From the NCBI GenBank assembly GCA_013140575.1, contig JABFSN010000047.1, positions 5,036-69,035 of the forward strand: a stretch of 64,000 nucleotides of DNA. Reading direction: 5' to 3'. Below, piece after piece: positions 1,668 through 62,393 of the stretch. Below the pieces are notes generated by a model, which had not been told where the DNA came from, searched no databases, and worked only from the letters and a program-made list of their open reading frames with translations. Position 1 is the first letter of the stretch. Every line of letters starts with the position of its first letter. Source of the stretch: Phycisphaerales bacterium (GTDB lineage Bacteria > Planctomycetota > Phycisphaerae > UBA1845). Made by a program: the position numbers and the translations under genes.

Positions 1668-2822
1668 GTGGCACGTACCCTGTTCAGGATGTTTTGCACG
1701 ACGTTGATCGTCTGCCACCCCGCATGGAGCGGCGAACCAAGTTCGTTCGCGACGCGCGTGGTCGACTACAACCCGGCGCCGGGGCACTTCGTTCAGGATG
1801 AATCGTTCAACGATCCTGCCCGGGCGCTCGGACCGCCGATCGGCGGCGGATTAACCGCGGCCGACAACTCCTCCGTCGTGACGCTGGGCGGTTTCGGCGG
1901 GTCGATCACGCTCGGGTTTGATCACACCGTGCTGGACGACCCACTAAACCCGATCGGTCTGGACGCGATCGTCTTCGGCAACGCTTTTTGGCGGGGCGGG
2001 GAGCCGATCAACCCCAACGTCCACTGGGCCGAGTGCGGCGTCATCGAGATATGCCGCGACTGGAACGAAAACGGTCAGCCGGATGCGGACGAACCCTGGT
2101 ATCTGATTCCCGGTTCGCACATCGCAAACCCGGCGGGTCAATTCACCACTTGGACGTGGGACGACAACGTTCAGGATGCAACCTATCCGCCTGCGAACCC
2201 CGCGTGGATTCCACCGGGCTACAGCGGAACGTGGCGAACATCGGGCTATTTGTTGCCGGCGGCGTTCAATCTCCCGTTGATCGTCAACCCCTTCGGTTCG
2301 AACGCGGAGGAAGAGGGGATTTTCGGATACGCGGACTATTCGCCGGTGCTCAAGTTGGGCGATTGGGACGCGGACGACGTCGTGGACGACCGCGGAACCA
2401 GCGCGGCGGAATTCTATACGATTCCCGACGATCCGTTCACCGTCGGCATTCGTCCCGGATCGTGCGGAGGCGACGCCATTGACATCGCCTGGGCCATCGA
2501 TCCGGCGAGCGGCGAACCGGCCGACCTCGACGGATTCGATTTCATTCGCATCACCAACGGTGTGAACGCCTTGACCATCTTCGGCGAGAAATCACCGGAA
2601 TTGGACGCCGTCGCCGATGTGGCGCCGGGCATCATGGGCGACTACGACGCCGACAACGACGTTGACATGGACGACTACTTCCATTTCCACCATTGCACGA
2701 AGCCCGCCGATGCCGGCGACATTTCGCCGCGCTGCCGCGTAATGGATTTTGACGACGACCTGCGCGTGGGCGTTCGCGATTTCGGCCGATTCCAGACCGC
2801 GTTCACCGGCGGGATCGAATGA
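1668..2822 (+). CDS. secreted hypothetical protein with C-terminal D-x-D dockerin/EF-hand-like repeats
   Basis: 384-aa ORF (GTG start) with signal-like N-terminus (MFCTTLIVCHPAWSG). C-terminal GDYDADNDVDMDDYFHFHHC and DFDDDLRVGVRDFGRFQTAF. Its stop overlaps the next start (ATGA). Confidence 0.6.
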   Translation: MARTLFRMFCTTLIVCHPAWSGEPSSFATRVVDYNPAPGHFVQDESFNDPARALGPPIGGGLTAADNSSVVTLGGFGGSITLGFDHTVLDDPLNPIGLDAIVFGNAFWRGGEPINPNVHWAECGVIEICRDWNENGQPDADEPWYLIPGSHIANPAGQFTTWTWDDNVQDATYPPANPAWIPPGYSGTWRTSGYLLPAAFNLPLIVNPFGSNAEEEGIFGYADYSPVLKLGDWDADDVVDDRGTSAAEFYTIPDDPFTVGIRPGSCGGDAIDIAWAIDPASGEPADLDGFDFIRITNGVNALTIFGEKSPELDAVADVAPGIMGDYDADNDVDMDDYFHFHHCTKPADAGDISPRCRVMDFDDDLRVGVRDFGRFQTAFTGGIE

Positions 2823-3655
2823 CCGCGACGAAGGCAACGAACCAGACCGGACTCGATGGGCGATGGCGCCTCAACCGGACCGTCGGTTTCACCCTTGTCG
2901 AACTGCTCGTCGTGCTGGCGATCGTCGCGCTTCTGCTGTCCATTCTTCTGCCCAGTTTCGCGGCGGCGCGAGGACAGGCGAAATCGGCTGCTTGCTCGTC
3001 GAACGTGCGGCAATTGGTCCTGGCCAACACGATGTACGGAAACGAGCACGCGGACCGATTCTGCCCGGGCGCGGCGCAGTTTATCGGCAACGCGAAGCAT
3101 CCGGGCAATTTGCATCGCTGGCACGGCACGCGCGACAAGCCCGGTGAACCGTTCGACGCACGGCGCGGTCCGCTCGTGCGTTATCTCGGGCGTGACGCTC
3201 GAATCCGGGCCTGTCCGGCGTTCACCAACGTCGCCCGCGGGTTTGAATACGGGGCGGGCGGTTTCGGCTACAACAATGCGTTCATCGGTGTGGCGCTGAA
3301 GCGCACCATGCCGAACGGGTATGCAATGGAGTCGGACGTCGTGGGGGCCTTGTCGAGCCGGGTGCGAACTCCCGCCGACACGCTGATGTTCGCCGATAGC
3401 GCGTTCGTCACCAATCGATTGATCGAATACAGTTTCGCCGAGCCGCGTTATCATGCGACGATGGGCTTCCGGGCCGACCCTTCGACCCATTTCAGGCACG
3501 GCGGACACGCCAATGTCGGCTGGTGCGACGGGCACGTGGACCAAAGGTCGCTGACGTTCACTTGGTCAAGCGGGTTGTATCCCGACCACCCGGGCCGGCA
3601 CGCCATCGGTTGGTTCGGCGCCACGGACGACAACAGGCTTTTCGATCTGGACTGA
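2819..3655 (+). CDS. prepilin-type N-terminal cleavage/methylation domain protein (DUF1559-like pseudopilin)
   Basis: Class III signal G/FTLVELLVVLAIVALLLSILLP near the N-terminus. C-terminal HFRHGGHANVGWCDGHV motif is typical of the planctomycete DUF1559 family. Confidence 0.85.
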   Translation: MTATKATNQTGLDGRWRLNRTVGFTLVELLVVLAIVALLLSILLPSFAAARGQAKSAACSSNVRQLVLANTMYGNEHADRFCPGAAQFIGNAKHPGNLHRWHGTRDKPGEPFDARRGPLVRYLGRDARIRACPAFTNVARGFEYGAGGFGYNNAFIGVALKRTMPNGYAMESDVVGALSSRVRTPADTLMFADSAFVTNRLIEYSFAEPRYHATMGFRADPSTHFRHGGHANVGWCDGHVDQRSLTFTWSSGLYPDHPGRHAIGWFGATDDNRLFDLD

Positions 3656-3656
3656 C

Positions 3657-3905
3657 TCGACAACGCTATGACAATCCCAAGCACGATCGACGAAATCTGC
3701 ACCGTGCGACACACGGCCCTTCCCAGCCCCGGAATCTGCACCGTGCAACACCAGGCCCTTCCCAGCCCCGAAGGGGCGGCAGTCAGTAGCCGGGGGTGGA
3801 GTCCGCGACAGCGGCCCACACCCCCGGAATCGCCCCCGACGCAAAGACCAGCCCCAGCGGGGCGAAAGAAGGGATGGCGGGATTCGTGTTCACGGCGCTA
3901 TAGTA
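3657..3905 (+). mobile_element. MITE-like element, family 1, copy A (249 bp, carries an internal 39-bp tandem duplication)
   Basis: Degenerate TIRs related to TACTACAACGC (left TCGACAACGC, right end ...GCGCTATAGTA). Flanked by CTGAC at 3652-3656 and 3906-3910. Same core as copies at 50470-50680 (same orientation) and 8199-8412 (inverted). Core is a string of hairpins; frames are not conserved between copies. Confidence 0.6.
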
Positions 3906-3918
3906 CTGACTCGACCAC

Positions 3919-5394
3919 ATGAACCGGTCCATACCCACCCCGACGCTCTGCGGATGCTGTTCCGAGCCGCATCCGGTCCGTATCGTGTTTGCGGTTGCCG
4001 TTGCATTGCTGGCCTGGACCTCCACGCCCGGGTGCGGAGTCGACGAATCCATCCTGCTCCCCGCGCAATTCAGCGAGACACCGCCGCCCGACGAGTCGTC
4101 CGTGCTGGCCCGCTTCGCCGTCATCAGCGACACCCAATGTCTGGACGAAGAGTCGCCCGCGAGATTCGCGGGCGCCGTCGCCTACATTCCATCGGCGTGG
4201 CGACCGCACGAGGCCTATACCACCCAGTTGTTCGACGGCGCCGTCCGCGCCGTCAACCGCATTCACCATTCCGGGCGCACCATCGATTTCGCATTGCACA
4301 CCGGCGATCTGTGTGACAACGCACAAATGAACGAACTGCAATGGGCGCTCACCGTCATGGACGGCGGCCAAATCGATCCGCGAAGCGGTCCCGACGACCG
4401 ATCACCGGACCAATTACCGCCGCCCGAACTTGATCCGCACGCCCCGTTCGCGGCCCAGGGGCTGTACCGTCACGGCATTCACGGACCGCGGCCATCGATT
4501 CCCTGGTACGTCGTATTCGGCAATCACGATGCGTTCGCGTTGGGGACGTTTCCCATCGTTGAGTCCATCACCGGCGCCCGCCGCGCCCCGTTGCCGCTGG
4601 AAGGTCGCCCCGGCATCCTACTGCCCGTCATTCTGAATCCGGTGGGATTCCTCGCCCACGGCAACGTGACGCCGGCCATGCCCGGTCCCCCGACGTTCCT
4701 CGAAGTGCCACGTGTTGTCACGCAGAATCCGGGACGCCGGTTTTTCAACAAGGGTGAATTCATCGCCGCCATGTACCGGACGCAAACGGATCCGCCGGGT
4801 CACGGTTTAACCGACGACCCCTCGGCACCGACGTGGTACAGCGTCGCCCCGATGCCCGGTCTGCGCCTGATCGGGTTGGACACGTCGGACGTGCCCGTGC
4901 CGGTGCCCGGGTTTCCCTATTCCGAGGGCGCCGTTTCGATTGCTCAATCGCGGTTTCTGCTTCGGGAACTGCAACGGGCGTCCGATCGCGGCGAACTCGT
5001 CATCGTCGCGTCCCACCACCCCAGTCACTGTCTCCAATCGATCTACGGCTCCGTATTGAGTGAACCGTCTTTGCAATCATTGCTGAATGAGTTTCCCAAC
5101 GTCATCGTTCATTTGGCCGGCCACACCCATCGCCATCGCGTCACCGACCGCGGCGGCTACCTGGAGATCGAAACGGCGAGCCTTCTGGATTGGCCGCAGG
5201 AGGGTCGGCTGATCGAAATCTACCGCGACCCGACAAGTGCTGCCGTTCACATCGCCTATGAGACAATCAACCATCTCGATGACTCGCTGCCTCCGCTGGG
5301 CGAAGATCCGCTGCTGGAGCTTCGCGCCGAAGCCCATCGCCGCGCCGATCCGATTAATCTACTCCCAGCCCATCCATCTCCCGATCTGCGATAA
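3919..5394 (+). CDS. calcineurin-like metallophosphoesterase, lipoprotein-type signal
   Basis: Motifs VISDTQC, HTGDLCDN, VFGNHDAF, ASHHP and LAGHTHRH match the metallophosphoesterase signature. N-terminal LLAWTSTPGC resembles a lipobox. Confidence 0.8.
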   Translation: MNRSIPTPTLCGCCSEPHPVRIVFAVAVALLAWTSTPGCGVDESILLPAQFSETPPPDESSVLARFAVISDTQCLDEESPARFAGAVAYIPSAWRPHEAYTTQLFDGAVRAVNRIHHSGRTIDFALHTGDLCDNAQMNELQWALTVMDGGQIDPRSGPDDRSPDQLPPPELDPHAPFAAQGLYRHGIHGPRPSIPWYVVFGNHDAFALGTFPIVESITGARRAPLPLEGRPGILLPVILNPVGFLAHGNVTPAMPGPPTFLEVPRVVTQNPGRRFFNKGEFIAAMYRTQTDPPGHGLTDDPSAPTWYSVAPMPGLRLIGLDTSDVPVPVPGFPYSEGAVSIAQSRFLLRELQRASDRGELVIVASHHPSHCLQSIYGSVLSEPSLQSLLNEFPNVIVHLAGHTHRHRVTDRGGYLEIETASLLDWPQEGRLIEIYRDPTSAAVHIAYETINHLDDSLPPLGEDPLLELRAEAHRRADPINLLPAHPSPDLR

Positions 5395-8159: not shown

Positions 8160-8198
8160 CGAAAGAAACCCGTCGCATAAGTAACACGTGCCCGCTAA

Positions 8199-8412
8199 TA
8201 CTACAACGCTATGAGCGCGTCTCCGGTCATGGCTTCTTTCGCCCCGCTGGGGCTGGTCTTGACCGTGCCAACGGCATCCGGGGGTTACGTCCGCTGTCGC
8301 GGACTAGACCCCCGGCTATTGACCGTAGCCCCTCCGGGGCAAGGAGGGACGCCGGCACCACGAACGGGGCCTCTTGATCGATCGCGCCCGGCATCGTCGT
8401 AGTGTTGTAGTA
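8199..8412 (-). mobile_element. MITE-like element, family 1, copy B (inverted relative to A and C)
   Basis: Best-preserved TIRs: left TACTACAACGCTATGA, reverse complement of right end TACTACAACACTACGA. Flanked by CTAA(T) on both sides (8195-8199 and 8413-8417). Core is the reverse complement of the copy A/C core. Confidence 0.65.
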
Positions 8413-8584
8413 CTAATGTCGCCACAAAGTTCCATCGTTCATGGCGATGGGGCGATCAACCAAGCCGATAACGCAATCTTCAGAAAGAATTGATTCGCCC
8501 GTTTGCCTAGCCGGGGCGCGTTTCGTACGTTTCGATTGTCGGCTGTGGAACGTAACGCCTGACGGGTTACGGCACGCGTCCGAC

Positions 8585-8595
8585 GGGGGGGGGGG
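8585..8595. repeat. G11 homopolymer tract upstream of the flp pilin gene
   Basis: Eleven consecutive G read directly from the sequence, about 240 bp upstream of the flp start. Confidence 0.9.
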
Positions 8596-8833
8596 AAACT
8601 GGGGCGATCGCATCCTGCCGACCGGCCTTTCATTTCCCAACGAACACGCGATGTATCCGGACCGCAGGACGCGGTTCGGCAAGTGACGCTCGCGACCCTT
8701 GGAGGTTGGAGTCGAGTAGGAGGGCGGTGGTCGGACCAGGGACGGGCCGGGCGCCGATTCGATTCCCAGCGGGTTCCGTTTGAAGATCGGACCCCGGGGG
8801 TTTAAGCGAAGGAGCAGAACAGTGAATTGCTTT

Positions 8834-9007
8834 ATGAACCGAGTGAAGAGCTTCCTGAAGAGTGAAGACGGCCCGACGGCGACGGAGTACGCGGTGATGC
8901 TGGCGTTGATTATCGTGGCCGCGATCGGCTCGATCCAGCTGGTGGGCACCAAGGTGTCCGACACGTTCACCAACGTCGAGGGCAAGCTTCCGACGGTCGC
9001 CCCGTAA
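8834..9007 (+). CDS. flp: Flp family type IVb pilin
   Basis: MNRVKSFLKSEDG/PTATEYAVMLALIIVAAIG matches the Flp G/XXXXEY processing motif plus hydrophobic stretch. AAGGAG lies upstream. An in-frame GTG at 8822 is an alternative start. The track ORF from 8780 is probably too long. Confidence 0.9.
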   Translation: MNRVKSFLKSEDGPTATEYAVMLALIIVAAIGSIQLVGTKVSDTFTNVEGKLPTVAP

Positions 9008-9101
9008 TGATGCGAATGGGGCTCGGCCCGTGGCGCTCGTGGCGTGAGCGGGTCGTAGCGTGAGCAACGCACCGTGGATGCCAAGTCCGCAAGCGTGTGT
9101 G

Positions 9102-9320
9102 AGGGTGGGCGTCGTCCGACGGGCGATGGCCCACCCTTCGTTTTTGATCGCCGAACGATTGCGGTAGGTGGGCTTGGGGGACGAAGCCCGGTCGTCGAAA
9201 GAACGGTGGGCAGTGCCCACCCTACGACTGCCGAGCCGCGAGCGTTGCCGGACCGTTCCCCCGACGGGCGCGGCCCGGAAGGACGCCGGCGCCGGTCCGA
9301 AATGGTGGGCGGCGCCCACC
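9102..9320. repeat. three GGTGGGC...GCCCACC(CT) hairpins in the flp-cpaA spacer
   Basis: AGGGTGGGC(9102-9110)...GCCCACCCT(9129-9137); GGTGGGC-AGT-GCCCACC-CTAC (9205-9225); GGTGGGC-GGC-GCCCACC-CTAC (9304-9324). All lie in a 413-bp non-coding gap. Confidence 0.7.
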
Positions 9321-9420
9321 CTACAAGAGACGGCGGCTCGGAAAGAATCCCCGGTGTACAGGGATATCGGATACTGGATGGGAGCGACGGTGACGGGGGC
9401 ATGATGGCTGCATTAAGGGG

Positions 9421-9981
9421 ATGGAGATGGTTTCGGGATTCTGGCTGATGACGTGCATGATCCTGGTGCCGGCGGTGTTGCTGGCGTCGTGGATCGATTA
9501 CGCGGAGCGGCGGGTGCCGAACTGGCTGAACGCCATGCTGGGGGCCGCGGGGTTTGTGGCCCAGGGGGCGTATTTCGGATGGTCGGGCGTGGTCGCGGGA
9601 ATGCTGGGTCTGCTGGTGGGGTTCGGCGTCCTGATCGTGCCGTGGATGATGCACGGGATGGGGGCCGGTGACGTGAAGTTGATGGCGGCGATCGGCGTTT
9701 GGTTTGGGCCGTGGATGACGCTGGTGTCGTTCGCGTTGGGGGCGGTGCTCGGCGGGGTGATCGCGGTGGCGATGATTCTGTGGCGGCGCCGCGGCACGGA
9801 AGCGTGGGCGAACATGGGCATCATCCTGTTGAAGGTGCAGTCGCGGGACACGGTGTTCAGCGAGTTCGGGTCGGCCAAGTCGCTGGGCGAGTCGCCGCAG
9901 TTGTTGCCGTATGGCGTGCCGCTGACGATCGGATCGTTGATCGTGTTGAGCGGAGAGGTTTTTCAATGGTGGGTGGTGTGA
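9421..9981 (+). CDS. cpaA: A24-family prepilin peptidase CpaA/TadV
   Basis: Polytopic membrane protein with WIDYAERRVPNWL and GAGDVKLMAAIG aspartate motifs typical of Flp prepilin peptidases. Located next to flp. Confidence 0.85.
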   Translation: MEMVSGFWLMTCMILVPAVLLASWIDYAERRVPNWLNAMLGAAGFVAQGAYFGWSGVVAGMLGLLVGFGVLIVPWMMHGMGAGDVKLMAAIGVWFGPWMTLVSFALGAVLGGVIAVAMILWRRRGTEAWANMGIILLKVQSRDTVFSEFGSAKSLGESPQLLPYGVPLTIGSLIVLSGEVFQWWVV

Positions 9982-9982
9982 T

Positions 9983-10516
9983 ATGCGCAATGGTCAGATA
10001 CGCGGGCGTAAGGGTATGTGGAGCAGTGTGTTGAGCGGCGTGGCGACCGCGCGCGTGGCGCGACGTCCGGGGGGCGAGTCCGCGTCCGCGGAATTGATGC
10101 GCGGGGTGAAATGCGCCGGACGGAAGCGCGGAGCGGCATTGGTGGAGTTCGCCGTGGTACTGCCGCTGCTGCTGGTGCTGTTGTTCGGCATCATCGAGTT
10201 CGGATGGGTGTTCATGGTCCGCCAGTCGTTGTCCAGCGCCGCCCGCGAAGGATGTCGCATGGCCGTTCTGAAGACGGCGACGCAGGCCATGGTGCAGGAA
10301 CGCGTGCGCGAGGTCATGGCGCCGACCGGGTTCGCGGAAGGGACGAGTTGGAACATGGACCTGTCGGCCATCGACGACGCGTTGCAGACCGTGACGGTGA
10401 CGATCCCGATCAACGACGTGGCGTTGACCGGGGGGTTCATTCTGCACGGCGGCTACGACCTGTCGGGCACGTGCTCGATGCGCAAGGAGGGCACTACGGT
10501 CGAGGATGAGGAATAG
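9983..10516 (+). CDS. TadE-like pseudopilin/pilus assembly protein
   Basis: RKRGAALVEFAVVLPLLLVLLFGIIEFGW is the TadE-like N-terminal motif. The real start may be the internal Met at 10097. Confidence 0.8.
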   Translation: MRNGQIRGRKGMWSSVLSGVATARVARRPGGESASAELMRGVKCAGRKRGAALVEFAVVLPLLLVLLFGIIEFGWVFMVRQSLSSAAREGCRMAVLKTATQAMVQERVREVMAPTGFAEGTSWNMDLSAIDDALQTVTVTIPINDVALTGGFILHGGYDLSGTCSMRKEGTTVEDEE

Positions 10517-11905: not shown

Positions 11906-12076
11906 GCTAAATAAGAACACACAAGAGGGAAACCGAGTTTCGTCCGCCCTCCGGGCGGAAAGAAATGGGGAACCCGATCCAGGGGCTGAAGCCCCTGGCT
12001 AAGACCGTGCGCCCTACGGGCGAGGCTTCGCGCGTCATGACGAAATCGGATTCCCTATTCCCTGGTTCAATTTAGC
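11906..12076 (+). mobile_element. MITE-like element, family 2, copy 1 (171 bp)
   Basis: TIRs GCTAAATAAGAAC / reverse complement of right end GCTAAATTGAAC. About 85% identical by eye to the inverted copy at 52741-52911. Core has three hairpins (TCCGCCC-TCC-GGGCGGA, CCAGGGGC-TGAA-GCCCCTGG, CGCCC-TAC-GGGCG). No clear target duplication. Confidence 0.6.
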
Positions 12077-12093: not shown

Positions 12094-12236
12094 GGTACGT
12101 GTTCAGCGTGGGAAACTTCGAATCAGTGCCACGGGCGCAAGCCCGCGGGCGCCAATGCGCGGGGTGCCGCGTGAACCTCCAATCACCGGGCTTGCGCCCG
12201 GTGCTCTGAATTGCGGGGCATACGCTCAACAGGTAC
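12094..12236 (+). mobile_element. MITE-like element, family 3, copy 1 (143 bp) with 7-bp target-site duplication
   Basis: Left end GGTACGTGTTCAGCGT; right end ACGCTCAACAGGTAC (13/15 inverted match). Flanked by identical GTTGCGG at 12087-12093 and 12237-12243. Core shared with 51553-51694. Confidence 0.7.
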
Positions 12237-24792: not shown

Positions 24793-25599
24793 ATGTGCCG
24801 CATCGGCCGTCAGAATTACGACCTCGGTGGGTGGCACGGACAACGGTACTCCGTTGTCCGTGTTGGCGATGCGGTAACGTCGGAATCGTCGCAATCCGCG
24901 AACAAACGAATACACGGGCAAGCGGGTACGCTTGCCCGTGCCACCCGGCGAAATCGCGTTTGCCTATGGCTGATCGCGGCCACAGGAACGGCGGGTGGTT
25001 GCGGTTATTCCGGCGGCAAGGCCTGGTTCATGTCGGGGCTGTTCAAGCGGCCCACGATCGAGGCCGGTTTCGAATTCGGCGAAGGGCCGGTGGCCGTGTT
25101 GGTCGACGATTTCCAGGAACAATGCTATTGGCCCGGCGCGACGCACCTGTTGGCCGAGAAGGTCGTTCAGGCGTTGCTGGACCAAAACGTCGCCAAGATT
25201 GTGATCCCGGCGTCGCACATGCACCAGTTGCGACAGGGCGATCCGGATTTCGACGAGAAATCGGCCGCCGCCGTCGGGCGGCTGGTGAATGCCGATCAAT
25301 TGTTGTTGTTGGAGATTCGCTCGTTCGACGCCACGGAAACGCCCACCGAGGCGAGCGCGGCCGCCCGGATGAGTGTGGCCGCCAAGGTCATCAACGTGCT
25401 TGAAAACAACGACCGCGCCAAGGTGCGGTTGTGGCCGAGATCGCACGAGGGCGAAGTCATCGAGGCCGACATCACGGCCGCCGCGATCACGCGGGCGAAA
25501 TCACGCGAAGCCATTCTCGATGAACTGACCAAGGCGCTGGCGGAGCGTGTCGTCAGGCGGTTCTACGACCGCCCGATGGAAGACTTCGAAAAGGGATGA
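24793..25599 (+). CDS. lipoprotein-like protein, unknown function (paralog 2); start codon unresolved
   Basis: Mature part aligns with paralog 1 (VAVLV..., C-terminal helix). Lipoprotein-type signal RRNRVCLWLIAATGTAGGCG begins about codon 52 of the ORF. No ATG/GTG/TTG lies in frame between 24796 and that signal. A palindromic unit lies in this 5' stretch. Confidence 0.55.
   Translation: MCRIGRQNYDLGGWHGQRYSVVRVGDAVTSESSQSANKRIHGQAGTLARATRRNRVCLWLIAATGTAGGCGYSGGKAWFMSGLFKRPTIEAGFEFGEGPVAVLVDDFQEQCYWPGATHLLAEKVVQALLDQNVAKIVIPASHMHQLRQGDPDFDEKSAAAVGRLVNADQLLLLEIRSFDATETPTEASAAARMSVAAKVINVLENNDRAKVRLWPRSHEGEVIEADITAAAITRAKSREAILDELTKALAERVVRRFYDRPMEDFEKG
24908..24950 (+). repeat. 45-bp palindromic unit (CACGGGCAAGCG-GGTA-CGCTTGCCCGTG + CCACCCGGCG)
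   Basis: Perfect 12-bp arms at 24913-24924 and 24929-24940. Identical arms occur at 59408-59435 and, split, at 51538-51713. Confidence 0.85.
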
Positions 25600-47383: not shown

Positions 47384-48786
47384 CAGTGCCGCTCAATGCC
47401 GGAAACCGCCATTGACTCGTCCGTGCGGAGCGCCCGCCGCAATCCGGCGACTTTCGCGATCGCTTCCGCATATTCGGCGTCGGCGTCGCTGTCGGCGACT
47501 ACCGCTCCCCCGCTGAACCAGTGCAGACGGCCTCGATCCAGCACCATCGTGCGGATGGCGATATTCAATTGCATGGACCCGTCCAGTCCGATCCAACCTA
47601 TGCTGCCGCAATAGACGCTGCGCTCGGTCGACTCAAGTTCGCGTATAATCTGCATGGCGCGGATCTTCGGCGCTCCGGTAATGGACCCGCCGGGGAATGC
47701 CGATTGCAGCAGGTCCACCCAACCGTGTGATTCCCGCAGACGTCCTTCGACCGTCGCCACCAGATGATAGACTGATGGATGCTCTTCGATCGCACCCGGA
47801 CATACAACGCGTACACTGCCGAATTCACAGACCCGCCCCAGATCGTTGCGCATCAAGTCTACGATCATGGTCAATTCCGACCAGTCCTTCTCGCTTTCCA
47901 GCAGTTCGCGGGACCGTATGGCGTCCAATACATCGTCACCCGCCCGCGGCCTGGTGCCCTTGATCGGTCGGGTGACGATTCTGCGGTCATGCAAATCAAG
48001 AAACAACTCCGGCGACGCACTAATGATCGCGGTCTCGCCGATTCTCAACAGTGCGGCAAACGGCGCCGGGTTGGCCATTCGGACGCGGCGATAAATCTCC
48101 ACCGCCGAAGATCGGCTCGGCGCCGACCAGCGCTGCGTCAAGTTCACCTGATAGACATCGCCGGCCGCGATATAATGTTTGACCCGCTCCACCGCGGCCA
48201 CATAGTTCCGCGGCGTCATCACCGGTTTCGCTTCACCCGCCGCGGCGATCGATCGATCAATCGGCGCTGGTGGCATCGCACGGCGCAACCTGTCTTCCAA
48301 CACGTCCAGGCGATCATCCACGGAATCGCGACCTCGACCCCCGATTCCGTCGACACCCACGACCCACCACCGACAATGCCGATGGTCGTAGACGATCGCC
48401 GTGTCGTACAGCGCCATGTACACCCGCGGCAACGCAATGTCCCGTTCCCGCGCCGACGGCACGCCATTCATTTCGGCGCCCGCCTCGTACGTCAAATACC
48501 CCACCCATCCCCCGACAAATGGCAGACGTTCGTCGCACAGACCGGGGTCCGCCGGACCGACGCGACGGGCGAGCGCGGTCAGCCAATCCGAATCGTCCGA
48601 TGAAAACAACTCGACCGGATCATCACCCAATACGGTGAACCGGCCGTCGGCGTGCCGGTCATCGCTGCTCTCCAGCACAAACGAGCCCGTTGCGTTCGCA
48701 AACGCTCCGATGGCGGTCTCGACCGACGGACCATGGGTCAACTCGCGGACCACTAACCGCGGCGATCTCGTGTTCGCTTCTGCCAT
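47380..48786 (-). CDS. pabB: aminodeoxychorismate synthase component I (chorismate-binding enzyme)
   Basis: FPGGSITGAPKIRAMQII and SVYCGSIGWIG motifs. The PabB versus TrpE call rests on linkage to pabC. Confidence 0.8.
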   Translation of the reverse strand: MAEANTRSPRLVVRELTHGPSVETAIGAFANATGSFVLESSDDRHADGRFTVLGDDPVELFSSDDSDWLTALARRVGPADPGLCDERLPFVGGWVGYLTYEAGAEMNGVPSARERDIALPRVYMALYDTAIVYDHRHCRWWVVGVDGIGGRGRDSVDDRLDVLEDRLRRAMPPAPIDRSIAAAGEAKPVMTPRNYVAAVERVKHYIAAGDVYQVNLTQRWSAPSRSSAVEIYRRVRMANPAPFAALLRIGETAIISASPELFLDLHDRRIVTRPIKGTRPRAGDDVLDAIRSRELLESEKDWSELTMIVDLMRNDLGRVCEFGSVRVVCPGAIEEHPSVYHLVATVEGRLRESHGWVDLLQSAFPGGSITGAPKIRAMQIIRELESTERSVYCGSIGWIGLDGSMQLNIAIRTMVLDRGRLHWFSGGAVVADSDADAEYAEAIAKVAGLRRALRTDESMAVSGIERHC

Positions 48787-48932
48787 CGCACCGCGGAGTA
48801 TACCGGTTCGGCGCGACCATCACACGACAGGCCCTCATCGCCCCGGCGCTGCACCGCCTGACACGCCGAAGCTCGCGAGGCGGGTGTTTTCAAGTTCACT
48901 CCTGCGGTCCGCCGGACCGATACAACGGACGT

Positions 48933-50420
48933 ATGTCCCTCGCGACCCATCCGTTCAACGGTGCGATGTCCGACGCCGTAGCCGCCCTGAATCTGCCGCC
49001 CGACGCCCGCGTCCTCGATATCGATCCGGGCGAAGTCGAAACGCAAATCGACGCGGATCGGCCCATCGAGTGCATCGTGGCCTGCGGCGTCCTCGAACGG
49101 GCCCGATGGCCGCGCTGGCTGCTCCGCCGGATGTATCACACCCTCGTCCCCGGCGGTCATTTGGTCCTGTCCGTTCCCAACCGGTGCGCAATCATTGACC
49201 GCATCGCCGCGTTCCCGTTGTGCGTCACGGGCCGCATGACGCGACGGTCCGACGCGGTGCACGCAACCTGCCGCCCAACGCGCCGCGATCCGGATTCCCT
49301 GTCCGCGCCCCGCTGCTACTCGCCTTCCGAACTGAATCGTCAACTGAACGAAGTCGGATTCGAGGTCCGAAATTCCCGAACCCACCGTCGCTGCTTCCAC
49401 GAGCTGGACGGCCGGGGTCTGCCCCGCCGGTTGACGGCCGCGGTCGATTGGGGGTTGGAACAGGTCAATCGCGGCGCCGGCGTTGAATTCCTCAAGCACC
49501 GCGGCGGGCGTTACCTGGCCGTCACCCAAAAACCCGACCACTCCACGGGCGCCGCCCGCATCGACATGACGCCGTGCCTGACACGGGCCATCGACGGTTT
49601 CGAATCGTTCTACGCCGCGGAATACACACGCTTGCGTTCCTGGCAGAATCAACAGCGCGGCGACTGGACGACCCTTCCGCCCGCCGCCGTCCACGACACG
49701 ATAGACCAATGCCGTTCCCTGCTCGTCCTTTCGCCCCATCCCGACGACGAATTGATCGGTTGCGGTGGGCTGATGCTCGACGTGCGGTCGCGGGGCGGCC
49801 GCGTCAGCGTGATTCAGATGACCGACGGCGCCGAATGTCAGGCCCTTCGCGACGCCGACGAACAGACCCGGCGCACCATCCGCTCCGACGAGGCTCGCGA
49901 CGTCGCCGACCGCATGGGCGTCACCCACCTGGCGTTTCTCGACGCCCCCAACGGTCGCCTCGACGATTCACCACCCAACGTCCGAAACGTTCGCAACGTG
50001 TTGAAATGGGCGCGTCCGGAAATCATCTGCGTGCCCTTCATCAACGACCGCCACGTGGACCACGTGGCCGCCAACAGGGTGCTTTCGTCCGCGCTCGGGG
50101 CGATCGACGACGGCTATCAACCCCTGATCCTTGCCTACGAGGTCTGGTCACTGGTCCCGCCGCACGTCGCCCGGCCGATCGACGTGTTCGCCCACCGCAA
50201 GCTCGATCTGTTGATGCACTACCCCACGCCAATGAAGGTCGTCGACTACATCTGGCACTGTCAGGTCCGCGACGGACATCACAGCCGCCAATACCTGCAC
50301 CAGACCGGTTTCGCGGAGGCTTTTTTGGCCACAACCCGATCCACCTACCAGCGACTCGTCGGCGCCCATCGACGCGGTGCCGATCGTCAAATACCGGCCG
50401 ACCCGGCTCTCTCAACCTGA
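48933..50420 (+). CDS. fusion protein: methyltransferase-like N-domain + PIG-L/LmbE family deacetylase C-domain
   Basis: C-domain LVLSPHPDDELIGCGG plus HVDH. N-domain has a class I methyltransferase-like layout (VLDIDPGE..., LVPGGHLVLSVPN) but lacks the GxGxG loop. The start is taken at the Met at 48933. Confidence 0.75.
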   Translation: MSLATHPFNGAMSDAVAALNLPPDARVLDIDPGEVETQIDADRPIECIVACGVLERARWPRWLLRRMYHTLVPGGHLVLSVPNRCAIIDRIAAFPLCVTGRMTRRSDAVHATCRPTRRDPDSLSAPRCYSPSELNRQLNEVGFEVRNSRTHRRCFHELDGRGLPRRLTAAVDWGLEQVNRGAGVEFLKHRGGRYLAVTQKPDHSTGAARIDMTPCLTRAIDGFESFYAAEYTRLRSWQNQQRGDWTTLPPAAVHDTIDQCRSLLVLSPHPDDELIGCGGLMLDVRSRGGRVSVIQMTDGAECQALRDADEQTRRTIRSDEARDVADRMGVTHLAFLDAPNGRLDDSPPNVRNVRNVLKWARPEIICVPFINDRHVDHVAANRVLSSALGAIDDGYQPLILAYEVWSLVPPHVARPIDVFAHRKLDLLMHYPTPMKVVDYIWHCQVRDGHHSRQYLHQTGFAEAFLATTRSTYQRLVGAHRRGADRQIPADPALST

Positions 50421-50469
50421 AACCGCGGCGGAAGTTCGCCCGCCCCGGCATCCCAGCGCCGCCATCTCC

Positions 50470-50680
50470 TGCAACAACGCTATGACGATTCCAGGCACGA
50501 TCGACGAAATCGGCACCGTGCAACACAGGGCCCTTCCCAGCCCCGAAGGGGCGCCAGTCAGTAGCCGGGGGTGTCGTCCGCGACAGCGGACGACACCCCC
50601 GGAATCGTCCCCGACGCCATTACCAGCCCCAGCGGGGCGACAGAAGCCATGACCGGAGACCCCTTCATGGCGTTGTAGTA
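50470..50680 (+). mobile_element. MITE-like element, family 1, copy C (211 bp)
   Basis: Left end TGCAACAACGC; reverse complement of right end TACTACAACGC. Flanked by CTCC at 50466-50469 and 50681-50684. Perfect 15-bp-stem central hairpin at 50567-50600. Confidence 0.65.
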
Positions 50681-50759
50681 CTCCATCCGCTTTCAACCCC
50701 CCCCGTGTGCCGCATCCGCAATCCGACCCGCTATACTGCCCGTCACGCGGGAGCCATTC

Positions 50760-51479
50760 ATGACCGACGACCGATGGCTTCGATTACGCCGATGGACCGC
50801 CATCATCAAGCTCGCCCTCGCCCTCGGCGGGTCGCTGCTTTTTTCGTTATGGCTGTCGGTGTCGTGCATCCCCGCCTGGTACGACCCACCGACCGTCGCC
50901 GAAGCGGACCTGCCCCGTATTCGTGCGGCCGTTCCCAACGCCTACCAATCATTCACCGATCGCGTCGTGAATGGCGCCCCATTTACGTTCACCCTGCGCG
51001 CGGCCGAATTGAATGAATGGATCGCCGCCCGCGACGCGCTCTGGCCGGACGCCCGCGGAACCGTGCCCGGTTGGCTTCACGGCCCGGTCATCGCGTTTGA
51101 GCGCGATCGAATCATTCTCGCGGCCCGGGTGACCAGCGGCTCGACCAACGCCGTCGTCAGCGCCCGCTTCGCCATCACCGCGTCGGCCGACACCGTCGAA
51201 ATCCGCCTCGTTGGAATCGCCGTCGGCGCTCTGCCACTGCCTCGATCGCTTCTGCCCAACGATTTCGAACGCCAGGTGCGTGACTGGCTCGACCGCGCCA
51301 ACCTGCCCATGGACCGACCAACGACCGGCGACGGGGATCGCGCGGGTTTGCGTCCGCCATTGACGGACGGCATCCGTATACCCAACCGTTTCCACTGGTC
51401 CAACGGTCGGCGCGATTTCCGCCTCGTCGGCATCACTTCGCGCGATGGATCAGTGAACCTGACCGTCGAACCCCAATGA
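50760..51479 (+). CDS. membrane-anchored hypothetical protein
   Basis: 239-aa ORF with good codon bias and an N-terminal TM segment (IIKLALALGGSLLFSLWLSV). No recognisable motif. Confidence 0.55.
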   Translation: MTDDRWLRLRRWTAIIKLALALGGSLLFSLWLSVSCIPAWYDPPTVAEADLPRIRAAVPNAYQSFTDRVVNGAPFTFTLRAAELNEWIAARDALWPDARGTVPGWLHGPVIAFERDRIILAARVTSGSTNAVVSARFAITASADTVEIRLVGIAVGALPLPRSLLPNDFERQVRDWLDRANLPMDRPTTGDGDRAGLRPPLTDGIRIPNRFHWSNGRRDFRLVGITSRDGSVNLTVEPQ

Positions 51480-51525: not shown

Positions 51526-51720
51526 CTTTTCGGGTGGCACGGGCAAGCGTACGTATGTGATGAGCGACGAATACTGCGAATCAGAGCCGTGGGCGCAAGC
51601 CCACGGTTGCCTCAATCGCGCGGCAACTTGCCGATCGCTTCACCGGGCTCGCGCCCGGTGCTCTGAAAGCAGGAGGGGACGCTAATCACGTACCAGCGTA
51701 CTCGCTTGCCCGTGGTTTCA
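51526..51720 (-). repeat. 45-bp palindromic unit interrupted in its loop by a family-3 element
   Basis: Arms CACGGGCAAGCG (51538-51549) and CGCTTGCCCGTG (51702-51713), with the CCACCCGA tail read on the minus strand. Removing 51553-51694 and one AGCGTAC copy restores a 12-4-12 hairpin. Confidence 0.75.
51553..51694 (+). mobile_element. MITE-like element, family 3, copy 2 (142 bp) with 7-bp target-site duplication
   Basis: Flanked by AGCGTAC at 51546-51552 and 51695-51701. Ends GTATGTGATGAGCG / reverse complement GGTACGTGATTAGCG. Core hairpins CCGTGGGC-GCAA-GCCCACGG and CACCGGGC-TCGC-GCCCGGTG are shared with 12094-12236. Confidence 0.7.
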
Positions 51721-52564: not shown

Positions 52565-52601
52565 TGGTATCCTGGTAGACCGTCACACTTCGCTTATCGG
52601 A

Positions 52602-52686
52602 CAGCTCCGAAGGGGCGACAGTCAATAGCCGGGGGCGTCAGCCCCCGGACCCGTCATCCCCCGCGAAAAAGCCCCGGAGGGGCGGC
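52602..52686 (+). repeat. truncated/degenerate family-1 core fragment
   Basis: CAGCTCCGAAGGGGCGACAGTCAATAGCCGGGGGCGTCAGCCCCCGG... parallels the family-1 core (CAGCCCCGAAGGGGCGCCAGTCAGTAGCCGGGGGTG...). No TIRs. Confidence 0.45.
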
Positions 52687-52740
52687 CGACCTGCAGGCTG
52701 TGTTGCGTCCGATCACCCGAACACGAAAACTCCCCAGGCC

Positions 52741-52911
52741 ACTAAATAAAACCGCGGAATAGGGAAACCGACTCCTTCATGGCGCACGAATCCTCGCCCG
52801 TAGGGCGCACGGTCTTAGCCAGGGGCTTCAGCCCCTGGATCGGATCCCCCATTTCTTTCCGCCCGGAGGGCGGACGAACCCCGGGTTCCCTTCTGTGTGT
52901 TCTTATTTAGC
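52741..52911 (-). mobile_element. MITE-like element, family 2, copy 2 (171 bp, inverted)
   Basis: Reverse complement aligns end to end with 11906-12076, including the TIRs. The TIR at 52899-52911 contains the stop codon of the HDOD gene. Confidence 0.6.
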
Positions 52912-57733: not shown

Positions 57734-58669
57734 ATGACGCCGCTCGTCGAAACAAACGTGGTACGACAATCGCAGCGGCGCATTCCCCCGCCGCCGGTCA
57801 AGCGGTTTCTCGACTATCTGTTCGTGGAATGCGGTCTGGCGGGCAATACCATTGTCGCGTACCAGGCGGACCTGTGCGAATTCTGGGACGACGTGGCCGC
57901 GGACGGCGAGCTCCGCGCCGATCTGGATATTGAAGACGTTCAGACGCATCTGATCGGATTACACCAGCGCGGATTGTCCACGTCGTCGATCGCGCGACAT
58001 CTGGCGTCGATCAAGATGTTGCTGCGTTTTCTGCATCAGCACGGTCTGGTGCGGCGGGACGTGGCGTCGCTGATCGAACTGCCCAAAAAATGGCACCGTC
58101 TGCCGCACGCGGTGCATTACGACCAGGTGGAGGCGCTGTTGCAGTCGCCGGACGCGTCGGACGAATTCCATCTCCGCGACCGGGCCGTGCTCGAATTGTT
58201 GTACGCGACCGGCATGCGGGTCAGCGAATTGACGGGCATCACGCTGGAAAGCGTCAATCTGGACGTCGGCTATCTGCGCTGCATGGGCAAGGGGCGGCGG
58301 GAGCGGATCGTGCCGATCGGGCGGACGGCGATCAAGGCCGTTCGCGCCTTCGTTGACGTGCTGCGGCCGGCGCTGGAGACGGCGCGATCGGGCCGGCGGA
58401 TGTTTCTGTCGCGGACGGGCCGTCCGATGGACCGCACCAGCATCTGGCGCCTGGTGCGCAAGTACGCGATTCGTGCGGGCATCGGGCAGCCGTTGCACCC
58501 GCACACGTTGCGGCATTGTTTCGCGACCCATCTGCTGGCGGGGGGCGCCGACCTGCGCGTGGTTCAGGAATTGCTGGGCCATGCCGATCTGGCCACGACG
58601 CAGATTTATCTGCACGTCGACGAGCACCGATTAAGCGAAGTGCATCGCCGATTTCATCCGCGGCCGTGA
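57734..58669 (+). CDS. xerD: site-specific tyrosine recombinase XerD
   Basis: N-terminal SAM-like domain FLDYLFVECGLAGNTIVAYQADL. Catalytic ...MRVSEL..., HTLRHCFATHLL and LGHADLATTQIYLHV. Confidence 0.9.
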   Translation: MTPLVETNVVRQSQRRIPPPPVKRFLDYLFVECGLAGNTIVAYQADLCEFWDDVAADGELRADLDIEDVQTHLIGLHQRGLSTSSIARHLASIKMLLRFLHQHGLVRRDVASLIELPKKWHRLPHAVHYDQVEALLQSPDASDEFHLRDRAVLELLYATGMRVSELTGITLESVNLDVGYLRCMGKGRRERIVPIGRTAIKAVRAFVDVLRPALETARSGRRMFLSRTGRPMDRTSIWRLVRKYAIRAGIGQPLHPHTLRHCFATHLLAGGADLRVVQELLGHADLATTQIYLHVDEHRLSEVHRRFHPRP

Positions 58670-59402: not shown

Positions 59403-59445
59403 GAATCCACGGGCAAGCGAGTACGCTTGCCCGTGCCACCCGACG
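59403..59445 (+). repeat. 45-bp palindromic unit (CACGGGCAAGCG-AGTA-CGCTTGCCCGTG + CCACCCGACG)
   Basis: Perfect 12-bp arms at 59408-59419 and 59424-59435. Intergenic, upstream of the ABC transporter genes. Confidence 0.85.
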
Positions 59446-62308: not shown

Positions 62309-62393
62309 CCCTTCTTCCGTTTGGTCCACTTACCGCGGCGATCGCGGCGAAAACCCGTCCCCGTGGGGCGACGCTCCGATTGAATGCAGGAGG

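Follow-up and report, generated by a model that had tools for sequence, protein, structure and literature searches.

Family-1 copies and their surroundings

The window (the whole 64-kb stretch of DNA analyzed here) carries a repeated element, named family 1, whose first copy lies between an open reading frame (ORF) and a metallophosphoesterase gene. Three homologous copies (A, B, and C) were recovered in the window by MAFFT alignment, repeat finding, and self-BLAST (E values of 1e-21 to 1e-53), confirming that the repeat is real. They are located as follows.

3656..3905 (+): family-1 copy A, 250 nucleotides (nt), between ORF 2819-3655 and the metallophosphoesterase gene 3919-5394; both termini degenerate (left, CTCGACAACGCTATGA; right, ..TCACGGCGCTATAGTA)
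3694..3770 (+): 39-nt tandem duplication within copy A (TRF; 2.0 copies, 92% match)
8199..8412 (-): family-1 copy B, 214 nt, with the best-kept inverted repeats (TACTACAACACTACGA / TACTACAACGCTATGA)
50470..50680 (+): family-1 copy C, 211 nt, flanked by genes 48690-50420 and 50760-51479

Copy length ranges from 210 to 250 nt and is typically ~211 bp. The extra length of copy A is explained by its tandem duplication, in agreement with the original prediction, which had also listed three full copies and one fragment. The three copies stand; the supposed fragment is a complete short unit at 52601-52690, described below. A fourth full copy of the same organism, copy E, was found on Logan contig L123 (162-371, minus strand; present in L123/L124, SRR11487824/25). 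In a relative with 77% amino acid identity (L119), a related right half, 77-83% identical, precedes the orthologous gene. Thus, four full copies are known in one organism (three in the window and one on another contig), in addition to the related right half. Pairwise identity among copies is 70-85%, which, with only four to five copies examined, suggests an old family and gives no sign of recent movement. Two Logan contigs of the same organism begin inside copies A and C; elements of this type break short-read assemblies.

Every copy is intergenic. In copies A, B, and C and in the L119 element, the right end is located 13-80 nt upstream of a gene, and the genes next to the copies are unrelated to one another. 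Copy B lies between divergent genes, 39 nt ahead of the ATG (8159) of a TPR/multihaem gene. The ORF 8413-9990 (-), seemingly an upstream gene of this copy, is spurious; the real genes there are on the plus strand and encode a Flp pilin and a prepilin peptidase. Copies A (+) and B (-) have opposite orientations and are 4.3 kb apart. An orientation bias relative to genes was rejected, since A and C run in the same direction as their neighbors, B lies ahead of a divergent gene pair, and E is antisense to the genes around it.

We found no reading frame conserved across the copies. A frame running from ATG to TGA in A and C (56-84 aa) is broken by a frameshift in B and ends after 27 codons in E, and its profile had no match among 5.8 billion proteins. 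An antisense frame matched only spurious ORFs overlying other copies. A small protein gene was therefore rejected, given the shifted and truncated frames and the lack of homologs. Spurious ORFs do arise from family-1 elements, and one is already present in public protein collections. At the RNA level, predicted folds were far more stable than those of shuffled sequences (z = -6.5, -5.6, and -2.8), and their ends were paired. A transcript of any copy, if made, would fold very stably, with the paired ends closing the structure. On the sense strand of the elements, neither a promoter nor an intrinsic terminator consensus was detected. Covariation was minimal (3 of 47 pairs, from four sequences). 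The terminal stem of copy E contains one compensatory change (A-T to G-C), and a T·G wobble is present in the plus-strand terminal stem in three of the four copies.

Termini and flanking duplications

In one common register, the ends of family 1 form an imperfect 16-nt inverted repeat, TACTACAACGCYATGA, which is present in each copy. Its two arms differ at two positions in B and at three in C and are more degenerate in A and E. A search of the window and 122 retrieved loci for this 16-mer (up to three mismatches) detected family-1 ends only, save for one isolated three-mismatch match in L070. Flanks were compared across copies A, B, C, and E using an 11-nt terminus in a single register, which yielded the following target-site duplications (TSDs).

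3652..3655 (+): left TSD of copy A, CTGA, overlapping the TGA stop codon of ORF 2819-3655
3906..3909 (+): right TSD of copy A, CTGA, followed by CTCGAC, the outer 6 nt of the left terminus
8413..8416 (-): left TSD of copy B, TTAG in element orientation (CTAA on the plus strand)
8195..8198 (-): right TSD of copy B, TTAG in element orientation
50466..50469 (+): left TSD of copy C, CTCC
50681..50684 (+): right TSD of copy C, CTCC

Three of the four full copies have exact 4-bp direct repeats immediately outside their termini, with a different sequence in each copy. At fixed positions, a 4-mer would match by chance with a probability of 0.0052 (composition) or 0.0061 (empirical); for at least three of four copies to match, the probability is 5.8e-7. 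Copy E is without a clean duplication (CCGA vs. CATC). Copy A has a longer direct repeat of 11 nt (ACTGACTCGAC), since the 6 nt that follow its right TSD are identical to the outer 6 nt of its left terminus. The right end is sharp, with AGTA in all four copies, and at the left end the four outermost nucleotides differ among copies (TACT, TGCA, CTCG, and CACC).

The direct repeats of 4-5 bp reported originally were thus recovered, with their length corrected to 4 bp by the common register. It had been considered that CT might belong to the terminus (AGTACT), and that flanking repeats forming a conserved part of the element would speak against a miniature transposon. In element orientation the flanks read CTGA, TTAG, CTCC, and CATC; with B flanked by TTAG and E by CATC, assignment of CT to the terminus was rejected. 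The repeats vary between copies, indicating that they are target duplications and do not belong to the conserved element, so that this objection to a MITE does not hold.

Some more specific insertion modes did not fit these data. Targeting of stop codons was dropped, since only the TSD of copy A overlaps one. With the TA duplication of an IS630/Tc1-type MITE, the 4-nt repeats flanking B and C would have no explanation; at the left end, A has TC and C has TG. An IS200/IS605-type PATE would be expected to sit 3' of a constant tetra- or pentanucleotide, to lack a duplication, and to have asymmetric subterminal hairpins; family 1 has varying left flanks (CTGA, TTAG, CTCC, and CCGA), direct repeats, and ends that form an inverted repeat.

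The three-hairpin core

The central ~100 nt shared by the family-1 copies is a three-hairpin, GTAG-tagged, REP-like unit, which the original prediction had missed. The same type of unit occurs alone in the window.

3763..3865 (+): core of copy A; GCCCCGAAGGGGC, a linker, GTAG with the long hairpin CCGGGGGTGGAGTCCGC-GACA-GCGGCCCACACCCCCGG, a ~20-nt spacer, and GCCCCAGCGGGGC
8241..8342 (-): core of copy B, three hairpins, tag ATAG
50538..50640 (+): core of copy C, three hairpins
52601..52690 (+): stand-alone short unit; GCTCCGAAGGGGC, ATAG with CCGGGGGC-GTCA-GCCCCCGG, a 24-nt spacer, and GCCCCGGAGGGGC

The central hairpin of copy C has a perfect 17-bp stem. In the stand-alone unit, a small hairpin is followed by the A/GTAG-tagged GC-rich hairpin and then by the third hairpin. 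Positions 52602-52686 had been taken for a fragment of the family-1 core lacking terminal inverted repeats (TIRs). The similarity to the core was reproduced (~90% over 34-38 nt), but the unit is intact: on the minus strand, 52603-52648 matched the Rfam family RF01687 (Acido-Lenti-1) with 51.9 bits, at a gathering score of 37. The family-1 cores scored below this threshold (27.9 bits for A, on the minus strand, and 27.4 bits for C), as did the cores of family 2 (28.5-30.6 bits), a second, unrelated TIR-bounded family with different ends that contains the same three-hairpin unit. In copies A, B, C, and E and at 52601-52690, (G/A)TAG is followed by CCGGGGG...CCCCCGG, so that the core, and only the core, corresponds to the definition of GTAG REP sequences (a 20-40-nt GC-rich imperfect palindrome).

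The unit also stands alone at 1527-1631, and it was found in other Planctomycetota and in Verrucomicrobiota as inverted dimers and tandem arrays. Thus, the central ~100 nt of family 1 is not transposon specific. In loci L067 and L054 the unit forms arrays of alternating orientation, a pattern more in keeping with a DNA repeat than with an sRNA gene. Two contigs carry parts of the unit beside IS200-like Y1 transposase genes: in L120, a frameshifted Y1_Tnp gene begins ~50 nt after a near-identical core (central hairpin), and in L008, a Y1_Tnp gene is flanked on both sides by the GCCCCAGCGGGGC-type third hairpin. The taxon of one of these contigs is unknown, and the other is binned as Acidimicrobiia. 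Scanning a genome collection with an 18-mer of the third hairpin yielded at least 117 stretches from many phyla, showing that this 18-mer is unspecific; no full family-1 copy was among the matches listed. In a metagenome scan, a first pattern had no match and a second detected three cores without family-1 ends. The core pattern was absent from IMG/VR.

The sRNA Acido-Lenti-1 of Rfam corresponds to the first two hairpins of the unit. That a REP-like unit listed as an sRNA is found within transposon-like elements and in several phyla is worth flagging to Rfam and to workers on REP/RAYT systems. Tentatively, and with more doubt than confidence, we suggest that the whole unit (small hairpin, GTAG-tagged REP hairpin, conserved spacer, and GCCCCNNNGGGGC hairpin) could be a pan-PVC/Acidobacteria DNA module of REP type that was repeatedly packed into unrelated TIR/TSD elements such as families 1 and 2. 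The MITEs would then be vehicles for a module that belongs to a Y1-transposase/REP system or is kept for a host function. If true, an Rfam family would have to be reclassified, and two classes of small bacterial repeats that are usually kept apart would be connected.

Origin of family 1 and comparison with known systems

Family 1 is probably a non-autonomous DNA transposon (MITE) of this uncultured Phycisphaerales bacterium, moved in trans by a DDE transposase and carrying the REP-like unit as cargo. Like bacterial MITEs in general, it is smaller than ~500 bp and noncoding, has TIRs and variable TSDs of fixed length, and is dispersed. The MITE-like label given originally is supported by the small size, the imperfect TIRs, the 4-bp TSDs in three of the four full copies, the several dispersed copies, and the lack of a conserved ORF; of that reading, the fragment and the TSD length of 4-5 bp had to be revised. 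A DDE-type transposase encoded elsewhere in the genome would bind both ends, and insertion at a 4-bp staggered cut would produce the 4-bp duplications of variable sequence. Since the REP unit also occurs alone, in another family, in PVC arrays, and beside Y1 genes, the MITE looks like a vehicle that picked up this unit or grew around it. Copy E without a clean TSD, the ragged left end, and the 11-nt repeat of copy A weigh against the MITE reading.

Among the 47 largest ORFs in the window, none had a transposase domain, and tblastn revealed no Y1 gene in the window; 3 of the 122 retrieved loci carry one, and in none of the retrieved loci was a Y1 gene flanked by family-1 ends. The search for an autonomous element with the same TIRs, which the original prediction had proposed, found none in the window, the retrieved loci, IMG/VR, or PLSDB. 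In IMG/VR, the TIR pattern gave 53 single matches without convincing inverted pairs, consistent with chance, and PLSDB plasmids gave no match. We know of no IS family that combines 4-bp duplications with ends beginning TAC. Other assemblies of the same organism contain the same insertions. No filled/empty pair was found: orthologs (~60% identical) are not syntenic, and there is no paralogous empty site. Since neither an autonomous partner nor a filled/empty polymorphism was detected, we infer mobility and the type of the transposase, as we do its identity, current activity, and effects on neighboring genes. A different MITE family in the window (12095-12236 and 51553-51693) has 8-bp duplications, and excision of 51553-51693 restores a palindromic repeat that is found intact at 59408-59435 and 24913-24940. 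By these traces, TSD-generating transposition has operated in this genome.

The tie of the core to Y1 transposases leaves a tyrosine-transposase route open. According to this alternative, which we regard as unlikely, family 1 would be a REP/BIME-type mosaic spread by an IS200-like Y1 tyrosine transposase (RAYT or the TIR-associated "TIRYT"). The 211-bp unit would be a REPIN-like composite, its paired ends (CTAC...GTAG) and GTAG hairpin would be recognized as single-stranded DNA, and the flanking 4-mers would be a by-product. Such a route would suit the GTAG REP character of the core and its RF01687 match, the alternating arrays and inverted dimers elsewhere, the Y1_Tnp genes adjoining parts of the unit in L120 and L008, and the compensatory change in the terminal stem of copy E. 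However, Y1 HUH transposases (IS200/IS605 and RAYT) insert beside a fixed short target and do not duplicate it, whereas three copies have exact 4-bp TSDs that differ in sequence, and the left flanks vary. The opposite orientation of copies A and B within the same chromosome stretch argues against a strand-specific single-strand mechanism, and Y1 genes are absent from the window and rare among the retrieved loci. On the other side, one study ties TIR repeat families to Y1 transposases and reports many such genes in a planctomycete (PMC3733652).

The stable folds and the Rfam match could also mean that family 1 functions as a structured RNA of the Acido-Lenti-1 type, either an sRNA or a cis-acting element of mRNAs. 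It would have multiplied by duplication and not by transposition, and it would be retained for the control that its fold exerts over the stability, processing, or termination of adjoining transcripts. The short distance from the right end to a gene start in A, B, C, and L119, the related element ahead of the same gene in the relative, and the T·G wobble in the terminal stem are consistent with such a function. We nevertheless consider it quite improbable: TIRs and TSDs are signatures of insertion and not of a gene family, the neighboring genes are unrelated and copy E is antisense to its own, the elements lack promoter and intrinsic terminator consensus, and covariation is limited to the few pairs mentioned above. 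Moreover, the Rfam orientation is opposite to that in which A and C would be co-transcribed. The invariant right terminus and the left outer 4 nt, different in every copy, recall insertion via an RNA or another template-copying intermediate (retro-type or by template switching). Such insertion would give an exact 3' end, an uneven 5' end, and duplications that vary in length, and the direct repeats can indeed be read as 4, 4, 11, and 0 nt. Acido-Lenti-1 is sometimes located near group II introns or reverse transcriptase genes (Rfam/Wikipedia description), which would agree with this mode. Against it stand the duplications of exactly 4 bp in three copies in a common register, the mutually inverted ends, which retro-elements do not need, and the absence of a reverse transcriptase from the window; considering also the tiny sample, insertion of this kind is very improbable.

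As a MITE, family 1 is of an ordinary type with one useful annotation twist, its REP-like/Acido-Lenti-1 center. It opens no long-standing question and documents a MITE family in Phycisphaerae, a little-studied lineage. It resembles bacterial MITEs such as Correia/NEMIS of Neisseria, RUP of S. pneumoniae, ERIC, and Nezha of cyanobacteria, which are noncoding elements of 100-300 bp with TIRs and short TSDs, are intergenic and often located just upstream of genes, and form a long hairpin if transcribed. Unlike these, it has no known parent insertion sequence, its termini are unrelated to theirs, and its middle is a REP-like unit found outside the MITE as well. Its variable 4-bp duplication also sets it apart from IS630-derived MITEs, which duplicate TA.

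GTAG-tagged REPs are documented in PVC bacteria (PMC3733652). With the GTAG REPs, REPINs, and BIMEs associated with RAYT, as described in Nunvar 2010 (PMC2817692) and Di Nocera 2013 (PMC3733652), the core shares a GC-rich imperfect palindrome following GTAG/ATAG. The unit is similarly high-copy and extragenic, related PVC units form inverted dimers and alternating arrays, and its central (L120) and third (L008) hairpins lie beside Y1_Tnp genes. In contrast to REPs and REPINs, family 1 has outer inverted repeats and TSDs, a single tagged hairpin per element, and no RAYT in the window. A REPIN is a mobile unit without TSD, typically an inverted REP pair, and inverted pairs were seen only in other genomes. 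Like TIRtrons/TIRYT and the Pseudomonas composites of degenerate GTAG units and unrelated stem-loops, family 1 joins REP-like hairpins to longer inverted-repeat arms at moderate copy number; target duplications are not described for them in the part of PMC3733652 at hand, and, unlike in TIRtrons/TIRYT, a Y1 gene flanked by family-1 ends was not seen.

The Acido-Lenti-1 motif was reported from Acidobacteria and Lentisphaerae as a probable sRNA (Weinberg 2010, PMC2864571). The stand-alone unit agrees well with this family (51.9 bits, compared with 27-31 bits for the family-1 and family-2 cores). In the family-1 cores, a 17-bp stem with a conserved inner GTCCGC-GACA-GCGGAC hairpin replaces the 8-bp first stem of Acido-Lenti-1, which places them below the RF01687 threshold. 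Unlike the described sRNA, the unit behaves here as a DNA repeat module and is found in Planctomycetota and Verrucomicrobiota.

Family-1 copies, their ends, and their surroundings

The original prediction of three homologous family-1 copies in the window was confirmed, with pairwise identities of 70-85%. The fourth known copy, copy E, is also full and is located on contig L123. In a common register, the copies and their 4-nt flanks are as follows.

3656-3905 (+): copy A; CTGA on the left and on the right
8199-8412 (-): copy B; TTAG on the left and on the right
50470-50680 (+): copy C; CTCC on the left and on the right
L123:162-371 (-): copy E; CCGA on the left, CATC on the right
3650-3660 and 3905-3915: 11-nt direct repeat ACTGACTCGAC at the left and right boundaries of copy A

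The extra length of copy A is indeed an internal duplication, namely, a 39-nt tandem duplication at 3694-3770. Copy E was reached via the spurious 90-amino acid ORF P0121, using a protein search with antisense frames; the P0121 contigs (L123 and L124) originate from samples that also contain the source organism. Family-1 repeats seed spurious ORFs such as P0121. They also fragment assemblies, since Logan short-read contigs of the source organism (L118:1, L127:1, and L128:1) have their starting point within copy A or copy C, either at the conserved GCCCCAGCGGGGC hairpin or slightly before it.

The two termini of the element are imperfect inverted repeats of each other (consensus, TACTACAACGCYATGA). 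In the window and 122 comparison loci, this 16-mer (three or fewer mismatches) was found at element ends only, except for one isolated three-mismatch match in locus L070. The right end reads AGTA in all copies, and the left end starts with a different four-base sequence in each (TACT, TGCA, CTCG, and CACC). A chance 4-mer match at fixed flanking positions has P = 0.0052 (composition) or 0.0061 (empirical), and matches in at least three of four copies have P = 5.8e-7. The flanking repeats vary among copies and are thus target duplications, not part of the conserved element. The caveat that CT may belong to the terminus disappeared once copy B was read in the element orientation. Copy E has no target duplication; some duplication decay is expected in copies this diverged. 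The left terminus of copy A begins with CTCGAC in place of TACTAC; these 6 nt are identical to the flank beyond the right-hand duplication, which gives the 11-nt direct repeat. Microhomology during insertion is one possible cause, and subsequent repair is another.

Copy A is flanked by two codirectional genes. The left duplication shares bases with the stop codon (TGA) of the upstream gene, and 13 nt separate the right end of the copy from the first ATG of the ORF that follows. Copy B is located 39 nt upstream of a TPR/multihaem gene, copy C lies 79 nt upstream of gene 50760-51479, and copy E is antisense relative to its neighbors. Among the four copies, no consistent orientation with respect to neighboring genes was detected, and neighbor functions are unrelated. 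A 525-amino acid ORF beside copy B (8413-9990, minus strand) was rejected as spurious in favor of plus-strand genes; the context of copy B is therefore a divergent intergenic region. These genes form part of a tad/flp pilus locus.

8837-9007 (+): Flp/Fap pilin (PF04964)
9421-9981 (+): type IV prepilin peptidase (PF01478; GC3 of 0.89)

The closest orthologue of the metallophosphoesterase gene 3919-5394 (77% identity) was found in SRR22387929 (Logan locus L119). An element at L119:1-200, 53 nt before this orthologue, combines the right half and right terminus of family 1 (..AAAGCGTTGTAGTG) with a different left-half hairpin module, GACCGTTAGGGAGCGGTC; it has the GGGAYGGCGGGA variant in common with copy A. 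The contig ends inside this element, and both orthologous conservation and independent insertion are compatible with the data.

The three-hairpin core

The added value of this analysis lies in the recognition that the family-1 core is a REP-like unit, found across PVC genomes and filed in Rfam as Acido-Lenti-1 (RF01687). This also applies to the supposed TIR-less fragment at 52602-52686: it contains all three hairpins in short form (52601-52690) and is thus a complete unit. The RF01687 model scored 51.9 bits at 52603-52648 on the minus strand (gathering score, 37) and 27-31 bits at the cores of A and C and at 1531-1574, 11979-12022, and 52795-52838. On the strand opposite to the RF01687 match, the unit consists of a small hairpin GCCCCGAAGGGGC; approximately 10 nt followed by (G/A)TAG and a GC-rich hairpin (CCGGGGG..CCCCCGG); a spacer of approximately 20 nt; and a third hairpin GCCCCAGCGGGGC. 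Family-1 cores remain below the Rfam threshold because a conserved inner hairpin (GTCCGC-GACA-GCGGAC) lengthens their middle stem. The unit agrees with how GTAG-tagged REPs have been defined in the literature; such REPs are reported from PVC bacteria (PMC3733652).

Conservation between phyla extends even to the spacer and third hairpin (GGAAYCG..ACCAGCCCCAGCGGGGCGACAGAA), and inverted dimers of the unit were found in other PVC genomes: L071, L065/L038 (Phycisphaerae), and L009 (Verrucomicrobiaceae). When reverse-complemented, the left arm of copy C (50470-50495) reads CCTGGAATCGTCATAGCGTTGT and resembles a fusion of CCCGGAATCGTC, the 3' foot of the central hairpin (50599-50610), and ATGGCGTTGT, the right terminus (50667-50680). 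It is possible that the left arm of family 1 represents the right side copied in inverted orientation and degenerated since; in that case, the element could have arisen from an inverted dimer of the type found in L009, L071, and L065.

Host setting and other small repeats

The window has a G+C content of 64%. A protein encoded on a 73.8-kb MAG contig matches the product of gene 3919-5394 with 100% identity, and Logan assemblies of SRR11487824/25 contain the source organism as well. Ordinary chromosomal functions account for the 47 largest ORFs (succinate dehydrogenase, aspartyl-tRNA synthetase, a sigma factor, the Flp pilus locus, an XerC/D-like recombinase, and others), and a transposase domain was absent from all 47. 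The recombinase, probably a housekeeping dimer-resolution enzyme, showed no tie to the repeats. A single-copy CRISPR-DR52 match at 62318-62354 (+) was below threshold (30.1 bits versus a gathering score of 50; E = 0.11) and is probably due to chance.

57734-58669 (+): XerC/D-type tyrosine recombinase (Phage_integrase and N-terminal SAM-like domain)
11906-12075 (+) and 52742-52911 (-): family 2, 170 nt, 89% identical
12095-12236 and 51553-51693: third MITE-like family, 142 and 141 nt, ends GTACGTGTTCAGCG..CGCTCAACAGGTAC

Family 2 has ends (GCTAAATAAGAAC..GGTTyWATTTAG) unrelated to those of family 1 and an Acido-Lenti-1-like module in its center (28.5-30.6 bits); the central part occurs alone, without the ends, at 1527-1631. 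Outside the conserved ends of both copies, no direct repeat was detected. An IS630-like TA duplication within a CTAG target is possible. In the third family, the target duplications are 8 bp long, and each contains one mismatch (GTTGCGGG/GTTGCGGA and AAGCGTAC/CAGCGTAC). Its copy at 51553-51693 is inserted in a 28-nt palindromic repeat, and excision of this copy with one duplication exactly restores a sequence intact at 59408-59435 and 24913-24940, providing a filled/empty pair. Clearly, duplication-generating transposition has occurred in the source genome.

Possible modes of family-1 spread

MITEs are defined by inverted-repeat ends, target duplications, small size, lack of coding capacity, and several dispersed copies. 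Family 1 shows all of these, its duplications being of 4 bp and variable, and the MITE-like reading was essentially right. A protein-coding function was rejected: the ATG-to-TGA frame of A and C does not persist in B, where it is shifted twice, or in E, where it ends after 27 codons, and a profile search of 5.8 billion proteins revealed no homologues of it. A 9-codon mini-ORF in the right arm is probably not meaningful; its frame is without indels and ends at TAG within the right terminal repeat, and ATC in copy E and ACG in L119 replace the start codon.

3868-3897: mini-ORF of copy A (MAGFVFTAL*)
8207-8236 (-): mini-ORF of copy B (MTGDALIAL*)
50643-50672: mini-ORF of copy C (MTGDPFMAL*)

Together with the transposition documented for this genome, the MITE features make it fairly probable that a putative DDE transposase would mobilize family 1 in trans, with the REP-like unit traveling as internal cargo. 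No parent insertion sequence was identified in the window, the comparison loci, IMG/VR, or PLSDB. Spread by a Y1 (RAYT/TIRYT) transposase, the main alternative, would suit the nature of the core, but it is made unlikely by the target duplications, by left flanks that are not constant, and by the fact that A and B, separated by 4.3 kb, point in opposite directions. IS200-like Y1_Tnp genes were found at L120:1410-1834, with two frameshifts and starting approximately 50 nt past a near-identical counterpart of the family-1 core, and at L008:6540-7310, with third-hairpin type CGCCCCGCTGGGGCT on both sides; these L008 hairpins recur further upstream (from about 5750). The window contains no Y1 gene, and only 3 of the 122 comparison loci do.

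That family 1 is a structured-RNA gene appears improbable, and a retro-type insertion much more so. Predicted RNA folds reach -103.7 (C), -108.4 (B), and -102.4 (A) kcal/mol, with z values versus shuffles of -6.5, -5.6, and -2.8, and in each the ends pair and close the element. The four-copy consensus fold retains the terminal stem, the central hairpin, and the pairing of the first and third hairpins; compensatory changes in 3 of its 47 pairs are too few to argue for selection on structure. On the sense strand, neither a sigma-70 promoter nor an intrinsic-terminator consensus was detected within the elements. The unit itself forms a tandem array in a Limisphaerales MAG (L067:1229-2129); related arrangements also occur in L054, L065, and L038. 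With a 207-nt period and alternating orientation, each repeat contains two opposed Acido-Lenti-1 motifs plus GCCCCAGCGGGGC- and GCCCCTCCGGGGC-type hairpins, and ten RF01687 matches exceed the gathering score within 900 nt. A DNA repeat fits this array better than an sRNA gene, and its organization is BIME-like.
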